A stretch of DNA of 25,364 bases from an uncultured Candidatus Saccharibacteria bacterium (GCA_964415715.1 CAYQBK010000044.1:1-25364); one strand, 5' to 3'. Positions 1,261 to 12,561 are shown, numbered from the stretch's first letter. Translations and numbers: made by a program. Notes: a model not told the origin generated them from the letters alone.

Positions 1261-1735
1261 GTACGTACTTCATTGCGTCTGTGAACCGCAGCATCTCCTC
1301 CGCGAGTGTTGATGACAGAATGCGCCTCATAATCTCGCAGCTATCGTTTTGCGAGAGGATATTCAAGCTACCCTCCCACAAAACATCGTCAATTACTGCT
1401 ATCTTGCGGTGGTGCTTTACGGTATAAAGCACCTTGATCCCTAGCTCCTGCATTGCCTGAATGCCGTTCGAAGCCTGTCCAATATACTCTCCATCATGTT
1501 CATCGGGACATCGAGTGTTTACTGTGATCGCTATACCTCTTTGTCGCAGTCCTTCAAAAATCGGCAGTAACTCCTCAATACGCCTTTTCGTGATGAATGG
1601 GCTTTCGATATAGACTCTTTGCCTTGCGTACCGTAAGTCGTCTGTAAATGTTTTGTAGAACGTCCTATTGTCAAAAAGCAGCGAGCTGGCGAGTCCTTGC
1701 GTATCGATCGTACGTGAGAAGAATGACCTAAACAT
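1244..1735 (-). CDS. Phospholipase D-like domain protein (single HKD-type motif, putative nuclease)
   Basis: IESPFIT, then HHRKIAVIDD..WEGSLN. Likely start is ATG at 1735, overlapping the recombinase stop by 8 nt; the ORF track extends it to 1762. Confidence 0.8.
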   Translation of the reverse strand: MFRSFFSRTIDTQGLASSLLFDNRTFYKTFTDDLRYARQRVYIESPFITKRRIEELLPIFEGLRQRGIAITVNTRCPDEHDGEYIGQASNGIQAMQELGIKVLYTVKHHRKIAVIDDVLWEGSLNILSQNDSCEIMRRILSSTLAEEMLRFTDAMKYVPIYRG

Positions 1736-3020
1736 CACTATTCTCCTCGTCTTCATCGTCATCTTCTTTTTCGATGATATCTAAGCTATCTACCCCTATC
1801 AAAGTTCTATAATCGTTCTTGATGCTCAGCCAAGATGACATACTAGGATCCTCGAGATCCTTTTTTGTTGAAATAACAGATTGAGTCAGGCTGTTTTGCT
1901 TGGTTATAACCTTTTGTTTATTAAGCTTATCTTCATCAAGCTTGCGTTTGAGCGGCTCGAGCCACTCGTAAGGGGTTATAGAGACCTTATTATCTTTCAA
2001 AATCGAGTTATAACCTATAGCAAGAAGTATGTCTCGCTTGCGTAGTATGTCACCCGTACGAAACTCTATGGATGCATTGTGTAGAGAATCAACAGTTTTA
2101 CCGACCAACTCGTACCATTTTTTCGAAGTGTCTTTAGCTTTGGCGTGACTTGACCTAGCAGCTTCAAGTTCATTCTTTAATTTTGTGTAACGTCGTGTGT
2201 ATGTTTCTTTGTCAATTATACCGTCTTCTAACATATCAATTAACTTGTCCATCTTTGCTTCAATCTGACTAATTGTGTCATTAATAGAGGTATCTCTTAT
2301 ATTTCGTGACTCTGCTTCTTTTTTAGCAATGATCTTTACGGTTCTTGATCCCCATTCATATAAATCAGTTGGTAGACTATAATCATTTAGTAGCGAATCA
2401 ATTTGATCAAATAGATCTTGCTCACGAGTCACGCCTCGCTGGGTACAGTACTCTCTTTTGTGAGTACAATGGTAATAGTTATAGTAGTTCACTGAGCTGT
2501 TTTTAAGTCGTTTAGATTTTCGTTCAGCCGTAACTGAACACGAACATTCACCGCACACTAGTAAGCCTTTTAATTCAAATACTTTTTTCGAGACATATCT
2601 TGTCCGCCCCTTTTTGCCGAGTATGTTTTGGACTCGCTCGAATTGATCTCTAGATATCATGCGTGGGTAACTTGCAACATACATCTTAGCGGGGTCGTTC
2701 GGATAGTCTGGGTGTGGAATTCTCCCGTAGTATCTTGGGTTTACTAATATCTTATATATCGAGCTTCGCGAAAGTGGACCACCACCGACCTTGTTTCTTT
2801 TTATCGATTTATAACCTTTTTCATCAAGCATGACTTTGATCTCGGCTATCGTGTAACCTTCGAGATACTTTTCGAATATGCTTTTTACATGTTCAAACCT
2901 TTCGGGATCTTTCTCAATAGTCTTTAGCACAGTATTATTGATATATCCTGGAGGTGCTACTCCTGAATGTCCACCATCCTTTAGCTTCTTTCCGACACCT
3001 CTTTTGACATCTTTACTCAA
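1728..3020 (-). pseudogene. Large serine recombinase lacking the N-terminal catalytic (resolvase) domain
   Basis: Starts at LSKDVKRG (end of alpha-E helix). Recombinase domain (APPGY, IYKILVNPRYYG, YPRMISRDQFERVQ), Zn ribbon (CGECSC...YYHC...C) and coiled coil are present. In-frame TAA at 3035-3033 lies only 4 codons upstream. Confidence 0.8.
1801..1832 (+). repeat. Direct repeat copy 1 (core GATGCTCAGCCA at 1821-1832), inside the recombinase 3' end
   Basis: Ungapped 24/32 identity with 6206-6237; last 12 nt identical. Confidence 0.6.
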
Positions 3021-5120: not shown

Positions 5121-6122
5121 ATGACATCACATGAGAGCAGAATTGTAACAGGTATACAACCTACTGGAGAGCTGACAATCGCGAACTACGTAGGCGCGAT
5201 GAAGCCGGTTGTCGAAATGTAAGATAACTTCGAGGGTTCGATTAACCTGTTTGTTGCTGATTTGCACGGTCTGACAGATCAAGAGCCAGACGTGGTGAAC
5301 GCTAATCGTCTCGACACGGTGCGCTCATTCCTCGCCGCTGGTGCCGACCCAGAACGAACGAATATCTATCTCCAAAGCCAAGTTGAAGAACCTACAGTAG
5401 TATTGGCGAATTATATGGACAGGCACACGACAATCTCAGAGCTATTGCGCAACCCGACATTAAAAGACAAGCTCAAATACGATGCCAAAGCAGAATCAAT
5501 CAACGTTGCTCTCGGTCGCTACCCAATCCTTATGGCGGCCGACATATTCGTACAAGACGCCGACAAAGTACCGGTGGGTGAAGACCAATACCCGCATATT
5601 GAGTTCGCTCGTAGGCTCGCTCGCCGATTTAATAATGAATACGGCAAGGGTGAATCAATCATTGTAGAGCCAGAAGTCATAGCAGTTGAAGCGTTAAGGA
5701 TTTTGGCACTGAATGGCGATGGCAAAATGAGCAAATCAAACCCACGCGGTGCAATCTTCCTGAAAGACACCCCAGAAGATGTAGAGGGTAAAATCAAGCG
5801 CGCGAAGACAGATGCGCCAGGCGAAATGAATGACTCGCTTGAAAGCCACTTTACACTCTGTCGCCATCTCTGCAAAGATGAGCAGCAGGCGCAACATCTC
5901 GAGCGGTTCAAAGCAGCACACCTTGACGGTAAACCTATCATGGCCGACTTTAAAAAGTTTATGACGGAACTTGTAAATAACTACTTGGACGAATTCCAAA
6001 CGAATTATAATAGTATCACGCCAAGCGACGTACAAAGTGTGATAACGGATGGTGGTCAACAAGCATTCGACCAAGCATCAGGCGTTGTTGCGCGTGCTAA
6101 ACGAGCTATGGGCGTTATTTAG
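5121..6122 (+). pseudogene. trpS: Tryptophanyl-tRNA synthetase interrupted by one in-frame TAA (codon 34, 5220-5222)
   Basis: From ATG 5121: MTSHESRIVTGIQPTGELTIANYVGAMKPVVEM*DNFEG..., continuing in frame into ORF 5262-6122 with YPILMAADI, VPVGEDQ and KMSKS. HIGH-equivalent TIAN lies before the stop. Confidence 0.9.
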
Positions 6123-8150: not shown

Positions 8151-8426
8151 TTATGATTCAAGCAATTCTAGCATTTTTTCAATATCTTTATATTTGTCTT
8201 TTGCGACTTCATCAATAATATTAAATACTTTTTGCAAGTCAAGCCCGTCATAAAGCCCCAGAACAACTTGTTTCACAATTAATATTATTTGCTTTTCTGT
8301 TTCAATATCAATCGGAGTTACATGCTCCCCATACCTCGCAGATGCAAAGTACTCTATAAGTTTATCGTCAACCTGTCGTGCTTCATCAAAATAATAGTCC
8401 GAAAAACTTTTAACAAATTCTGCCAT
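8151..8426 (-). CDS. Hypothetical protein (91 aa)
   Basis: ORF with protein-like composition; TAAGCT 5 nt before ATG. No motif recognised. Confidence 0.6.
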   Translation of the reverse strand: MAEFVKSFSDYYFDEARQVDDKLIEYFASARYGEHVTPIDIETEKQIILIVKQVVLGLYDGLDLQKVFNIIDEVAKDKYKDIEKMLELLES

Positions 8427-8548
8427 ATGAAAGCTTACTTCGGAAACCGTTGGTTTGTAATCATTTGAATAGCATGTATCTGGCTGGTTATTTGGAGTCC
8501 AGCGTATGGCAGCATTTCTATCTCGAGCAAAAGTATTACGAGCATATG

Positions 8549-9358
8549 CTAAAAATCCTCTAACGATATGCCACTAAAACCTAATGCTTTTGTGAGCATA
8601 TCACATGCAACCTCTGCCTTATAACTATCAATATTGCGATCCAATAACGTTCTTGACAGTGATTCAATGCAATAAGATACTCTATCATAACCGTCTATCA
8701 ATGAAGTGTCTTCTGTAAACATTTTTGCCAGCGTTTTTTGGGTGTAGGATTTGAACTCTGTCTGATCTCCATTTCTTGATAATCTTCGCGCTTCATCCAA
8801 TAATCGTTCGTTTACACTTGCAGCTATATCAAATGGGAGTAGGCGATAGTCAACTGAAATCACTTGACATGATTTGCTATTTCTAGGTTTAGAAGAAAGG
8901 TTTTCAATATATTTAATTGCACACTTTCTAAGTTTCCTGACTATTGGCCTAAGAACGACTCTTTTTGGATCTGGCGTTGTAGCCGCTAGCGACACTATAT
9001 CAAGATTACTGTCAGTTGCATTCATATCTGTTATGAACTGCACAATCCTAATAAGCACTTCACTCCGACCAGTTTGTGGATCTTCAACCAAAACCCTTTC
9101 TAGCCCAGCAAGTTGTATATGACTATCAACCCAGCTATGTCTATCAAGCTTAATAGGAAGATGCGTAATCTCTTCACAGCGAGTAATCAAACCAAATCCT
9201 TTTTGGATTAGTTGAGCATGCTGTTCATCAATTCCGTATTGCCAAGCTTCAATTCTCTCAATGACGGCCAAATCAAACTCAGCTTGTTTCTCAAAATATC
9301 TAGCTTTCTCTAGCGCATTTTCATCACGCTTACTAGCCACCTCACTCACCCTAGCCAT
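8549..9358 (-). CDS. Hypothetical protein (269 aa)
   Basis: Long ORF; TAGGAT 8 nt before ATG. No motif recognised. Confidence 0.75.
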   Translation of the reverse strand: MARVSEVASKRDENALEKARYFEKQAEFDLAVIERIEAWQYGIDEQHAQLIQKGFGLITRCEEITHLPIKLDRHSWVDSHIQLAGLERVLVEDPQTGRSEVLIRIVQFITDMNATDSNLDIVSLAATTPDPKRVVLRPIVRKLRKCAIKYIENLSSKPRNSKSCQVISVDYRLLPFDIAASVNERLLDEARRLSRNGDQTEFKSYTQKTLAKMFTEDTSLIDGYDRVSYCIESLSRTLLDRNIDSYKAEVACDMLTKALGFSGISLEDF

Positions 9359-9549: not shown

Positions 9550-11436
9550 ATGAAAGCACACGAAATACGAAACGCATATATTAAATTTTTTGAGAATAAC
9601 AGCCATAGTGTTATACCACGATCCAAGCTAGTGCCTGACAATGATCCATCGACACTTTTTACTGGTAGCGGGATGCAACCACTAGTACCCTACCTACTCG
9701 GAGAAAAGAACCCATATGGTACTAGGCTAGTCGACAGCCAACCATGTTTTAGGGCTCAAGATATTGAAGAAGTCGGCGATAACCGTCACACAACTTTTTT
9801 TGAAATGCTGGGCAATTGGAGCTTGGGTGATTATTTCAAAAAAGAACAATTTACAATGATATTTAACTTCCTAACAGATATAGTCGGGCTTGATCCAAAC
9901 AAACTATATGTCACAACATTTATTGGTAGTAGAGAGTTTTCGATCCCAAAAGATACAGAATCTGGCGATATTTGGAAAAAACTATTTGCCGACAAAGGAC
10001 TACAGGCTGATGATGTAGAGATTGGTTCAGAAGAAAATGGTTACAAAATAGGCACACCCAAAGGTGCACGTATTTTTTATTATGATGCCTCAAAAAATTG
10101 GTGGTGCCGAAATGGTAAAATGGCTGACATGCCCGTCGGCGAGCCGGGTGGACCGTCTAGCGAGATATTTTATGAATTTGATTTTGTGGAACATAATACT
10201 GATTATGGGGATAAATGCCACCCCAACTGCGACTGTGGACGATTTATAGAAATAGGTAATAATGTGTTGATGCAATATTCCAAAACAAAAGACGGCTTTG
10301 AACAATTACCCAAAAAAAATATTGATTTTGGTGGTGGTTTAGAGCGAATTGCCATGGCATCAATAGATAGCCCAGATGTGTTCAAGATTAGTTTGCTTTG
10401 GCCAATTATTGAGAAACTAGAAGAAATAAGCAATAAAAAATATGACGGCCATACAAACTCTATGCGAGTTATTGCAGATCATCTAAGAGGTGCAGTGTTT
10501 TTGGCTATGGATGGCGTTGTGCCTAGTAACAAGGAGCAAGGTTATGTTATGCGCCGTATTATGCGCCGAGCGATAAGATTTGCTTTTGATTTGGGTATTG
10601 AACAGGATGTTTGTGAATCAATAATACCTGTAGTCGCTGATATGTATATCGATGACTACCCGGAAATACGCGAAAAAAATGAAACTATAAAGGAAATATT
10701 GAAAAAGGAAGAAAAAATATTTCGGCAGACTTTACGTTCTGGGGTGCGAGAATTCGACCGTATTAGTAAAAATGGCACGATTACCGGTCAAGATATATTC
10801 AAATTGTATGATACTTATGGCTTTCCGGCAGAACTAAGTGCCGAGGAGGCCTATAAAAAACAGATTAAAATATCTGAAAATTGGCGAAAAGATTTTGATA
10901 TCAAAATGGATGAGCAAAGACAACGCAGCAAAACAGCAACAAAGGGTACTTTCAAGGGTGGACTTGCCGACCATAGTCTAATAGTCACCAAATACCACAC
11001 TGCTACACACCTAATGTATCGAGCGCTAAAAATATCTTTGGGTGATCATGTTGTGCAGCGTGGTAGCAATATCACTGCCGACAGATTACGGTTTGATTTT
11101 AGTCACCCAGAAAAAATGACACCAGAAGAAATAAAACAAGTCGAAGAAATAGTTAACGAGCAAATAGTCAAAGATTGGCCGATGTCATGGCGTGAAGAAA
11201 ATACCAAAAAGGCACTGAGCGAAGGTGTGGCTGGTGCTTTCGGTGATAAATATGGTGAAATGGTCAAAGTCTACACTGTTGGCGACCCAGACGGCGAAAA
11301 CTATAGCCGTGAAATTTGCGGTGGCCCACACGTTGAACACACGGGCATACTTGCCGATGGTGGGGTTAAGTTTAAGATACTAAAAGAAGAATCATCGTCC
11401 GCAGGAGTAAGACGCATAAAAGCCGTGCTAATCTAA
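9550..11436 (+). CDS. alaS: Alanine--tRNA ligase, compact form without C-Ala domain
   Basis: TLFTGSGMQP, HTTFFEMLGNWSLGDYFK, IDFGGGLER, editing motifs HTATHL and EICGGPHV. Ends at GVRRIKAVLI. Confidence 0.97.
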   Translation: MKAHEIRNAYIKFFENNSHSVIPRSKLVPDNDPSTLFTGSGMQPLVPYLLGEKNPYGTRLVDSQPCFRAQDIEEVGDNRHTTFFEMLGNWSLGDYFKKEQFTMIFNFLTDIVGLDPNKLYVTTFIGSREFSIPKDTESGDIWKKLFADKGLQADDVEIGSEENGYKIGTPKGARIFYYDASKNWWCRNGKMADMPVGEPGGPSSEIFYEFDFVEHNTDYGDKCHPNCDCGRFIEIGNNVLMQYSKTKDGFEQLPKKNIDFGGGLERIAMASIDSPDVFKISLLWPIIEKLEEISNKKYDGHTNSMRVIADHLRGAVFLAMDGVVPSNKEQGYVMRRIMRRAIRFAFDLGIEQDVCESIIPVVADMYIDDYPEIREKNETIKEILKKEEKIFRQTLRSGVREFDRISKNGTITGQDIFKLYDTYGFPAELSAEEAYKKQIKISENWRKDFDIKMDEQRQRSKTATKGTFKGGLADHSLIVTKYHTATHLMYRALKISLGDHVVQRGSNITADRLRFDFSHPEKMTPEEIKQVEEIVNEQIVKDWPMSWREENTKKALSEGVAGAFGDKYGEMVKVYTVGDPDGENYSREICGGPHVEHTGILADGGVKFKILKEESSSAGVRRIKAVLI

Positions 11437-11461
11437 AACACAACATAATAGGATTTCGTGC

Positions 11462-11491
11462 TTGTTATATGTGGCCTTTTGTGTTTAAATT
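11462..11491 (+). promoter_or_regulatory. Putative sigma70 promoter for the leader-tRNA-Gln transcript
   Basis: TTGTTA (11462-67), 18-nt spacer, TAAATT (11486-91), 5 nt, then ATG 11497. Same leaderless layout as other genes in the window. Confidence 0.5.
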
Positions 11492-11496
11492 AAGTC

Positions 11497-11553
11497 ATGT
11501 TACATATATTTAACCAACAGCAACAGAACATCACGCAGGTAGCGGTTTTTTAA
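11497..11553 (+). CDS. Gln-rich attenuator leader peptide MLHIFNQQQQNITQVAVF (18 aa)
   Basis: ATG TTA CAT ATA TTT AAC CAA CAG CAA CAG AAC ATC ACG CAG GTA GCG GTT TTT TAA. 5 Gln codons of both types, directly upstream of two tRNA-Gln genes. Confidence 0.8.
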   Translation: MLHIFNQQQQNITQVAVF

Positions 11554-11585
11554 ACGTATAGCAAAATATGAACTTTTACACCGCT
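11541..11585 (+). promoter_or_regulatory. Antiterminator hairpin (segments 2:3)
   Basis: AGCGGT 11541-46 pairs with ACCGCT 11580-85; inner TAAA 11551-54 with TTTA 11575-78. Mutually exclusive with the terminator. Confidence 0.7.
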
Positions 11586-11604
11586 CAGCCAGCGGTGTTT
11601 TTTT
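11578..11604 (+). terminator. Intrinsic terminator (segments 3:4) immediately 5' of tRNA-Gln(CUG)
   Basis: ACACCGCT (11578-85), loop CAGCC, AGCGGTGT (11591-98), then T-run to 11604. tRNA starts at 11606. Confidence 0.85.
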
Positions 11605-11605
11605 A

Positions 11606-11679
11606 TGTCTTGTCGTCTAGTGGTAGGACACCTGTTTCTGGAACAGGTAACCTTGGTTCGAATCCAAGCGAGATAGCCA
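11606..11679 (+). tRNA. tRNA-Gln (anticodon CUG)
   Basis: Acceptor TGTCTTG/CGAGATA, G73, encoded CCA. Anticodon stem CCTGT/ACAGG with loop TTCTGGA. T-arm CTTGG-TTCGAAT-CCAAG. Confidence 0.93.
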
Positions 11680-11682
11680 TAA

Positions 11683-11759
11683 TCGGAGGTAGACAAATAG
11701 GTAAAGTCACTTGCCTTTGAAGCAAGAATATGAAGGTTCGACCCCTTCCCTCCGAGCCA
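11683..11759 (+). tRNA. tRNA-Gln (anticodon UUG)
   Basis: Acceptor TCGGAGG/CCTCCGA, G73, encoded CCA. Anticodon stem CTTGC/GCAAG with loop CTTTGAA. T-arm GAAGG-TTCGACC-CCTTC. Confidence 0.95.
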
Positions 11760-11955
11760 ATTCAAAAAATATCATCTCTCGCATTTAGTCACAAAATAGG
11801 TTCGAATAAACTCGTATATGTGAGCCAAATCGTTAAACCTGTTGCAATAACAGAACAGGGTGACATCAAAACAGCCCACTCTTACAATATATTGTAGTTC
11901 ATTACCTGAGAATATGATGGCTGAAGACCATTAGGATTTAGTACTATACCAAAAA

Positions 11956-12561
11956 CTACTTTACCACTGTAGTTTTTGGTCTATCGTAATATGTTGATTT
12001 ACAATAGACTAAAAGTTCTTCAAATATTTCTTGGCATTGGTATGAACAGACCTCTAGTTGTTCATGATGCTTCTTCTCAAAACTGGTGTAACTAATGTTT
12101 ATTTTCTTGTATGGTCGCCAGTTATCTAGATCGGCAAGTATTAGAGCTTGCATTTTGTCAACAGTCCAAACAAAAACCGACTCATCGTCTGCTTTTGTAT
12201 CATAACCGTTTAACAATCTAACAAAGTCTTCAAACTTTACTAATTCTTTACTCAACTTATCGATTGCCCGTGCCTCACGAGCAACTTTCAATTCTCTATC
12301 TTTTTTGCTTGCAAAAGTATTAACATCGCCTGCATATACTTCAGAAAAATCGTGAACTAAGGCATATTTTAATACTTTTGCGATATCCAAATTAAGCTTA
12401 AATTTGTCATTGAGATACCAACACAAAATAGCAACTGAATAGCTATGTTCAACATCATTTTCCGCTCGATCACTGCCCAAAATATCGTGATTTCGATCTA
12501 CTTTTGACAACTCACATATTAATGATTGCAGGATAAAGTGTGTATTATCAGGTTTTTTCAT
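11956..12561 (-). CDS. HD-domain phosphohydrolase, YfbR/HDDC2-like 5'-deoxynucleotidase family
   Basis: ENDVEHSY, ALVHDFSEVYAGD, VDKMQA. Confidence 0.85.
   Translation of the reverse strand: MKKPDNTHFILQSLICELSKVDRNHDILGSDRAENDVEHSYSVAILCWYLNDKFKLNLDIAKVLKYALVHDFSEVYAGDVNTFASKKDRELKVAREARAIDKLSKELVKFEDFVRLLNGYDTKADDESVFVWTVDKMQALILADLDNWRPYKKINISYTSFEKKHHEQLEVCSYQCQEIFEELLVYCKSTYYDRPKTTVVK

Follow-up and report, generated by a model that had tools for sequence, protein, structure and literature searches.

Within a 25,364-nucleotide stretch of DNA (the window; positions are counted from its first letter) that belongs to a wastewater-derived Saccharimonadales genome assembly of 881 kb and 39% G+C (G000), we analysed the region downstream of alaS, the gene for alanyl-tRNA synthetase (AlaRS). 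Here two tandem glutamine tRNA genes are preceded by an intrinsic terminator and by a short leader open reading frame (ORF) with four consecutive glutamine codons. An earlier note on this DNA had proposed that these elements form an attenuator in which ribosomes stalled on the glutamine codons control the tRNA genes. All of the features that it listed were found where it had placed them, and the 18-codon ORF with its glutamine codons ahead of the tRNA-Gln pair is confirmed in the sequence (Table 1). Its interpretation of these features is supported in part.

Table 1. Features of the leader, the tRNA-Gln pair and their surroundings, in window coordinates (MFE, minimum free energy)
Feature	Position	Strand	Basis or remark
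alaS (alanyl-tRNA synthetase, 628 aa)	9550-11436	+	Pfam tRNA-synt_2c and tRNA_SAD; gene upstream of the leader
Promoter-like region	11462-11491	+	TTGTTA 11462-67, TG 11482-83, TTAAAT/TAAATT 11485-91; inferred from sequence
Leader ORF, 18 codons, peptide MLHIFNQQQQNITQVAVF	11497-11553	+	ATG 11497, TAA 11551-53; no Shine-Dalgarno sequence
Four consecutive Gln codons CAA-CAG-CAA-CAG (codons 7-10)	11515-11526	+	Proposed regulatory codons
Fifth Gln codon (CAG) of the leader ORF	11536-11538	+	Sequence
Segment 2, antiterminator 5' strand, GGTAGCGGT	11538-11546	+	MFE and prefix folds
Intrinsic terminator (segments 3 and 4)	11578-11604	+	8-bp stem, 5-nt loop, T7
tRNA-Gln(CUG), tRNA 1	11606-11679	+	ARAGORN and Rfam, 58.6 bits
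tRNA-Gln(UUG), tRNA 2, second copy, phage-like scaffold	11683-11759	+	ARAGORN and Rfam, 65.2 bits
Untranslated spacer with decayed tRNA-like fragments	11760-11944	+	Direct repeats D1, D3 and D4
Two-way hairpin with flanking A/T runs	11945-11983	.	Inverted repeat I3 and sequence
HD-domain gene, convergent	11956-12561	-	Pfam HD_3/YfbR-like

The terminator stem (11578-98) has 8 pairs, 5 of them G-C, and a 5-nt loop, with a calculated stability of -11.6 kcal/mol; it is followed by T7 at 11599-604, and its 3' end lies 1 nt before tRNA-Gln(CUG), just as the earlier note had described. There is no room for a promoter between the two, so the tRNA pair can be transcribed only through the terminator. 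In this genome, a TATAAT-like hexamer precedes most of the other tRNA genes by about 8-20 nt, and many of them are closely followed by a terminator. In a scripted scan, a terminator-like site abuts a tRNA gene in 1 of 27 cases in this genome and in 0 of 102 cases in the other loci fetched, which makes the window locus the sole terminator-abutted case among the 129 tRNA genes examined. When 401 genomes of the order were searched for tRNA-Gln genes of this type with a T-run no more than 10 nt away, only G000 matched; three unpublished genomes (G276, G317 and G358) are counted among those that gave no match.

The glutamine run is likewise rare at such a position. Runs of at least four CAR codons occur 13 times in the 881-kb genome, corresponding to about 0.001 expected per 140-nt stretch, and only the one in the leader is followed by a terminator and a tRNA. 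A scan across GTDB for four CAR codons upstream of tRNA-Gln returned 48 pattern hits, 9 of them with real tRNA-Gln genes. These nine other runs, found in 185,579 species genomes and scattered over phyla, lie 51-111 nt upstream of the tRNA; most are in the tail of the upstream protein gene or outside ORFs, two are in short ORFs, and none has the ORF-plus-terminator layout. The number of full layouts expected by chance across the 185,579 genomes is 9 x ~0.2 x ~0.008 = ~0.014, an estimate that uses small-number frequencies and assumes independence. Since the four-CAR cases are only scattered and none has the full layout, we conclude that the arrangement is not a widespread motif.

The leader can also adopt a structure that excludes the terminator. 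In its MFE fold, AGCGGT (11541-46) pairs with ACCGCT (11580-85), which is the alternative helix that the earlier note had pointed out, and in both the MFE and the prefix folds segment 2 pairs with 11580-85 and 11588-90, that is, with the 5' arm and the loop of the terminator. This antiterminator is about as stable as the terminator (-11.5 versus -11.6 kcal/mol). We computed ribosome-footprint-constrained folds, as equilibrium folds only, for the form of the locus found in the window (haplotype A) and for a second form, haplotype B, which is described below. When the ribosomal A site is placed on the first glutamine codon, the antiterminator is the best fold and the mean terminator pair probability is 0.01 in haplotype A and 0.21 in haplotype B. 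When the ribosome is placed at the stop codon, as in the termination step of the earlier note, the terminator forms with a probability of about 0.96-0.97 in both haplotypes. On this modelling the switch would be thermodynamically allowed but marginal, and its behaviour would depend on co-transcriptional kinetics.

Two defining features of an attenuator are cleanly present, namely an ORF with cognate codons and a terminator between that ORF and the genes that would be regulated. We hypothesize that the locus is a ribosome-mediated leader-peptide attenuator gating two accessory tRNA-Gln genes, a plausible reading to which we give an even chance. The steps that we infer, from the promoter and the transcript start through translation of the ORF, stalling and switching to the effect on tRNA levels, would be as follows. 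Transcription would begin from a weak promoter at the ATG of the 18-codon ORF and yield a short transcript that is probably leaderless. In the off state, glutamine codons 7-10 would be read fast, the ribosome would reach the stop codon and cover segment 2, the hairpin at 11578-98 would form, and transcription would end at T7, 1 nt before the tRNAs. In the on state, with Gln-tRNA(Gln) scarce, the ribosome would wait on the first glutamine codons and leave segment 2 free to pair with the 5' arm and loop of the terminator, so that transcription would read through into tRNA-Gln(CUG) and tRNA-Gln(UUG). The tRNAs would then be freed by RNase P from a leader of about 110 nt. This would amount to negative feedback, with the supply of tRNA-Gln set by the reading speed of its own codons. 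This organism has GatB and gives no GlnS match over the family cut-off, which indicates that Gln-tRNA(Gln) is made by the indirect GluRS/GatCAB route. By that route the decoding of glutamine codons depends on tRNA-Gln, GluRS and GatCAB, and this makes glutamine codons a sensible sensor.

The locus is present in several independent wastewater assemblies, three of which provide haplotype B. The organism occurs in samples from wastewater and activated-sludge studies; about 20 runs contain the locus, and a search for RNA runs with it listed none. Haplotype B is 97-100% identical to haplotype A over most of 5 kb, with a divergent tract at 11174-11535. Fourfold-degenerate sites of alaS differ at 16 of 39 positions inside the tract and at 10 of 195 in the rest of the gene; neutral divergence in the tract is thus about 41% and the expected neutral identity about 0.59, which the identity of the non-coding part of the tract (about 56-62%) matches. 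In the tract, the AlaRS protein is 98% identical between the haplotypes. A search with the AlaRS C-terminus for a lineage that might have donated the tract found none, as haplotype A matches at 98% and the next best match is at 88%.

The leader ORF of haplotype B has 16 codons (MFKRCNQQQQYSVGRR) and shares with haplotype A both the ATG and the frame as far as the glutamine run. The run itself reads CAG-CAG-CAA-CAG, with one synonymous CAA>CAG change and all four glutamines kept. Codons 2-5 and the codons after the run are all changed, and the peptides of the two haplotypes share only N-QQQQ. By a rough estimate, the neutral probability of keeping the ATG and the four glutamine codons would be about 1e-3. 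We also observed that in haplotype B a 5-nt insertion shifts the stop to a TAG overlapping AGCGGT, and a terminating ribosome would therefore still mask segment 2. From 11536 onward the haplotypes are identical, and the terminator and segments 2-4 do not differ between them. The conservation argument from haplotype B is a single comparison, and a scan statistic that considers only block identity does not reach significance (p = 0.48).

Upstream of the ORF, the hexamers TTGTTA (11462-67) and TAAATT (11486-91) stand 18 nt apart and match 8 of 12 consensus positions; an alternative reading of the -10 region is TG-n-TTAAAT. The putative promoter of the earlier note does have its hexamers at these positions, but an 8/12 match lies under the 9/12 threshold of our promoter scan, which did not list the site. 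Haplotype B retains GCTTGT, TTTTGTG and TTnAAT in this region. The hexamer spacing would put the transcript start at or beside the A of the leader ATG and so produce a leaderless mRNA. Across the genome, a Shine-Dalgarno core is found in only 23% of long ORFs, and in genes that have none, -10-like hexamers peak at -13/-12 from the ATG; because of these two observations, leaderless mRNAs and leaderless initiation look common in this Saccharibacterium. The -10-like hexamer of the leader ORF is at -12 or -11, 5-6 nt ahead of the ATG.

What the earlier note had missed in its account of the regulated tRNAs is that the pair, though correctly recognised as tRNA-Gln genes, is accessory. Contig C73 carries a canonical tRNA-Gln(UUG) that has a TATAAT and a terminator to itself; this gene is matched in 22 of 22 genomes of the family, at full length with 89-95% identity in most of them. 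A tRNA-Gln(CUG) of the canonical type, likewise with a promoter to itself, is found in family members as well. The sequence type of tRNA 1 is used by other Saccharimonadales families (76-86% identity) and not by the family of the window. tRNA 2 shares 82-84% identity with the tRNA-Gln genes of Bacillus and Xanthomonas phages, and its D-arm type occurs in phage tRNA arrays of IMG/VR. Judged by these sequences, the pair is accessory and partly phage-like. The spacer that follows it contains degraded copies of tRNA pieces, with the tRNA 1 anticodon arm at 11837-53, the T-arm side of tRNA 2 at 11909-20 and the 3' end of tRNA 2, GAGCCAA(A/T)TC, at 11822-31; no tRNA is called between 11760 and 11944 at normal thresholds. 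The fragments suggest an older, decayed tRNA copy or array.

Such fragments would also be expected if the pair were silent and decaying, the leftover of a mobile or phage tRNA array that no longer functions and is shut off by the terminator. Haplotype B adds to that picture, with a G7>A change that places an A-C mismatch in the already weak acceptor stem of tRNA 1 and with a broken neighbouring HD-domain gene. We think that a silent pair is improbable, as the two tRNAs score 58.6 and 65.2 bits, well over the Rfam threshold of 29, and have kept U1-A72, G73 and an encoded CCA. A further point against it is a weak one: CAG accounts for 40% of the glutamine codons in the genome and the assembly contains no other tRNA-Gln(CUG), which we do not take as a real absence given that only 27 tRNA genes were assembled.

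The terminator itself may have a history that is independent of the tRNAs. The alaS gene has no terminator of its own ahead of 11578. Outside the window's species, AlaRS homologues are at most 76% identical; in the nearest species (G002, AlaRS 76% identical) a terminator, ACACCC-GTA-GGGGTGT plus T6, stands about 110 nt after alaS, and it aligns with segment 2 plus T6 of the window locus. Indeed, segment 2 is followed by T6 in the window, and the two together resemble the 3' half of a terminator. Comparison of the two species suggests that segment 2 may be the 3' arm of an ancestral alaS terminator and that the terminator now in place may be a second copy of it, and a duplication of this kind would explain why segments 2 and 3 are complementary. 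Terminator duplication is a plausible route to an attenuator and is also the basis of the main rival explanation. According to the latter, the terminator is the inherited one of alaS (or of a short post-alaS transcript), a partly phage-like tRNA-Gln cassette, acquired laterally, landed right behind it, and the ORF, the glutamine run and the 2:3 pairing are fortuitous, with the tRNAs made only by terminator leak or hardly at all.

We consider an inherited terminator with a fortuitous leader less likely than an attenuator, although it accounts for much of what we observed: alaS has no other terminator, the similar post-alaS terminator of G002 aligns with segment 2 plus T6, the pair is accessory next to a canonical tRNA-Gln(UUG) (on C73) matched throughout the family (22/22), tRNA 2 is phage-like, decayed tRNA fragments follow the pair, an allele without the leader ATG exists (see below), and no other species has the layout. 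It does not account for the joint occurrence of a cognate codon run, a short ATG-initiated ORF and an abutting terminator, which is expected only about 0.014 times in 185,579 genomes. Nor does it account for the survival of the ATG, the frame and the glutamine codons in a tract with about 41% neutral divergence, or for a stop codon that keeps its overlap with segment 2 despite an indel.

A number of observations weigh against the attenuator hypothesis, and the first of these concern its distribution. Following synteny via alaS, we found no tRNA and no HD-domain gene near or after alaS in 22 family genomes. A T-run abutting tRNA-Gln was found in 0 of 400 other genomes of the order, and a comparable leader layout in none of 185,579 species genomes. 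BLAST of the locus against 61 relatives and 401 order genomes returned the tRNA parts only and no leader homologue, and exact-pattern scans of IMG/VR for tRNA 1, tRNA 2 and the leader gave no match. The earlier note had looked to conservation of the ORF and its glutamine run in relatives; both are kept in haplotype B, the only diverged relative with the locus, but are not found across Saccharibacteria and other members of the Candidate Phyla Radiation (22 family and 400 order genomes). Segments 2-4 are identical in the two haplotypes, and there is no helix covariation to read. Moreover, the divergent tract may end just left of the glutamine run, which would weaken the conservation argument, and the block containing the run, with 2 differences in 15 nt, falls between tract and background levels.

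The remaining difficulties lie in the folding and in the start signals. The 1:2 helix (11525-49), which the earlier note had invoked to sequester segment 2 when the leader is untranslated, is no better in haplotype A than in shuffled sequence (z = +0.55); the 1:2 hairpin of haplotype B reaches -17.2 kcal/mol with a modest z of -1.9. The untranslated leader is predicted to form the antiterminator in haplotype A and the 1:2 hairpin plus the terminator in haplotype B. The claim that stalling on 11515-26 leads to read-through holds for a ribosome at the first glutamine codon, but for a stall at the fourth the terminator is predicted at equilibrium in both haplotypes (0.96), and the equilibrium folding of the switch is altogether marginal. 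The 2:3 pairing could be a by-product of the alaS terminator duplication. The leader has weak start signals, with promoter hexamers at 8/12 and no Shine-Dalgarno sequence. Finally, a T>A change at 11498 converts the ATG into AAG on a Logan contig from wastewater run X5 that is otherwise haplotype A. AAG is the sole allele seen in that run (k-mer depth 4.7; one contig over the site), and in at least one population the leader can therefore dispense with its start codon.

Two further searches bear on how far the element extends. A metagenome scan with the anticodon arm of tRNA 1 found only one unrelated tRNA-Gln(CUG), which has no leader. On a phage contig (L163; IMGVR_UViG_3300036760_000302), a mini-ORF at 1667-1699 (MNNLNQQQQE) precedes two tandem tRNA-Gln(UUG) genes by about 60 nt, in a tRNA array made up of His, Ser, Ser, Tyr, four Leu and two Gln. 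This mini-ORF is followed by a hairpin that has no U-tract, and hence by no U-tract terminator, and a single match of this type is the number that chance predicts. As far as sampled, the element would be confined to one species, which makes it a weaker exemplar than a conserved family.

We also considered whether the leader could be a regulatory RNA or a gene in its own right. An Rfam search of 11000-12400 at E values up to 10 returned the two tRNAs and weak unrelated matches, with no T-box among them, and neither a specifier loop nor a T-box sequence is present at the locus; on the Rfam result we rejected the T-box and known small RNA (sRNA) readings. Alternatively, the region could be a small gene independent of the tRNAs: some 108 nt from promoter to terminator would specify a small peptide or sRNA that has a function of its own and no codon-sensing link to the tRNAs. 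Promoter-like and terminator elements are indeed present, GcvB is weakly matched (23 bits, with a gathering score of 42, E = 0.013), and in the nearest species alaS is followed by a promoter-like element, about 95 nt of structured sequence and a terminator. We give this explanation only a slight chance. The peptide is not conserved between the haplotypes beyond N-QQQQ, the GcvB match is under threshold and probably driven by the terminator, and transcription of the tRNAs would be left unexplained. In the nearest species (locus L011 of G002), the stretch after alaS consists of the promoter-like element TGGTATAAA, a long hairpin and the terminator, with the next gene directly after; this stretch may be a small transcript or a structured 3' untranslated region.

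Several observations concern the surroundings of the locus. The hairpin at 11945-11983 is likely to be the end of both the tRNA transcript and the transcript of the convergent HD-domain gene. In haplotype B this YfbR-like HD-domain gene is split into fragments of 73 and 111 aa (L117:6400-6735 and L133:1767-2320) and is probably a pseudogene. Relative to contigs L117 and L118, the window has sharply bounded divergent tracts at 8287-8573, at 11174-11535 and from 12669 onward, a pattern of co-occurring strains and mosaic recombination; one tract boundary, at about 11535, falls inside the leader ORF. Further upstream, the window carries a serine-recombinase-like gene (1728-3020, with Recombinase and Zn_ribbon_recom domains) and an extra gene of the TrpRS/TyrRS class (5262-6122), and the presence of these genes fits a variable, island-rich region. 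A 14-nt direct repeat around the module (11449-62 and 11932-45, 12 of 14 positions matching) was discarded as being at chance level, with about 0.9 expected by estimate, and a low-threshold ARAGORN call ('tRNA-???') at 11525-11602 was judged spurious.

Repeats of tRNA-Gln ends are also seen elsewhere. The last 22 nt of the canonical tRNA-Gln(UUG) (C73:8877-8951) are repeated exactly at C73:9119-9140, about 170 nt downstream; three other genomes (G001, G004 and G019) have the same pattern of a downstream repeat of the tRNA-Gln 3' end, and at several further tRNA-Gln loci of Saccharimonadales, partial copies of a tRNA lie upstream. In appearance these repeats are att-type duplications, as produced by elements integrating at tRNA-Gln.

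The proposed attenuator resembles the trpL, hisL, pheL, leuL and thrL leaders of Proteobacteria in that the sensed amino acid is encoded by successive codons of a short ORF, in that an intrinsic terminator precedes the genes that would be regulated, and in its alternative pairing via the 5' arm of the terminator, which would be freed by a stalled ribosome and masked by a terminating one. It differs from them in that the regulated genes would be tRNA genes rather than genes for biosynthetic enzymes, that the mRNA is probably leaderless and has no Shine-Dalgarno sequence, that the 1:2 protector or pause hairpin is missing in one haplotype, and that the element is known from a single species. The pheST operon of E. 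coli, with its pheM leader, is similar in that a component of the translation apparatus is attenuated via codons for its own amino acid; there, however, the component is a synthetase, whereas here the tRNA is the product and the sensor would read the abundance or charging of the very molecule that it controls. T-box riboswitches likewise couple the state of a specific tRNA to translation-related genes through a choice between terminator and antiterminator, but they bind uncharged tRNA directly and need no translation, and the locus gives no T-box match.

Bacterial tRNA genes are usually described as promoter-controlled, via growth rate and the stringent response. The earlier note knew of no leader-peptide attenuator for tRNA genes, and our check of the literature agrees, as we found no published case in which a tRNA gene is attenuated by translation of its own codons in a leader peptide. 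The possibility of attenuator-like leaders at the E. coli tRNA-Phe genes was not borne out for pheV, which we checked directly and which has none.

Taken at its fullest, our hypothesis is that the cell senses its tRNA supply by translating the corresponding codons and opens a terminator in front of extra copies of the tRNA genes, in a device that may have arisen recently out of a duplicated alaS terminator and a tRNA-Gln cassette of phage origin; to this fuller version we assign a little less than an even chance. If true, it would mean that a known mechanism, leader-peptide attenuation, is applied to tRNA genes, and it would provide a worked example of how an attenuator originates from a terminator duplication and a newly acquired gene. 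It would also mean that tRNA pools can be adjusted separately for each isoacceptor, with decoding speed feeding back directly.

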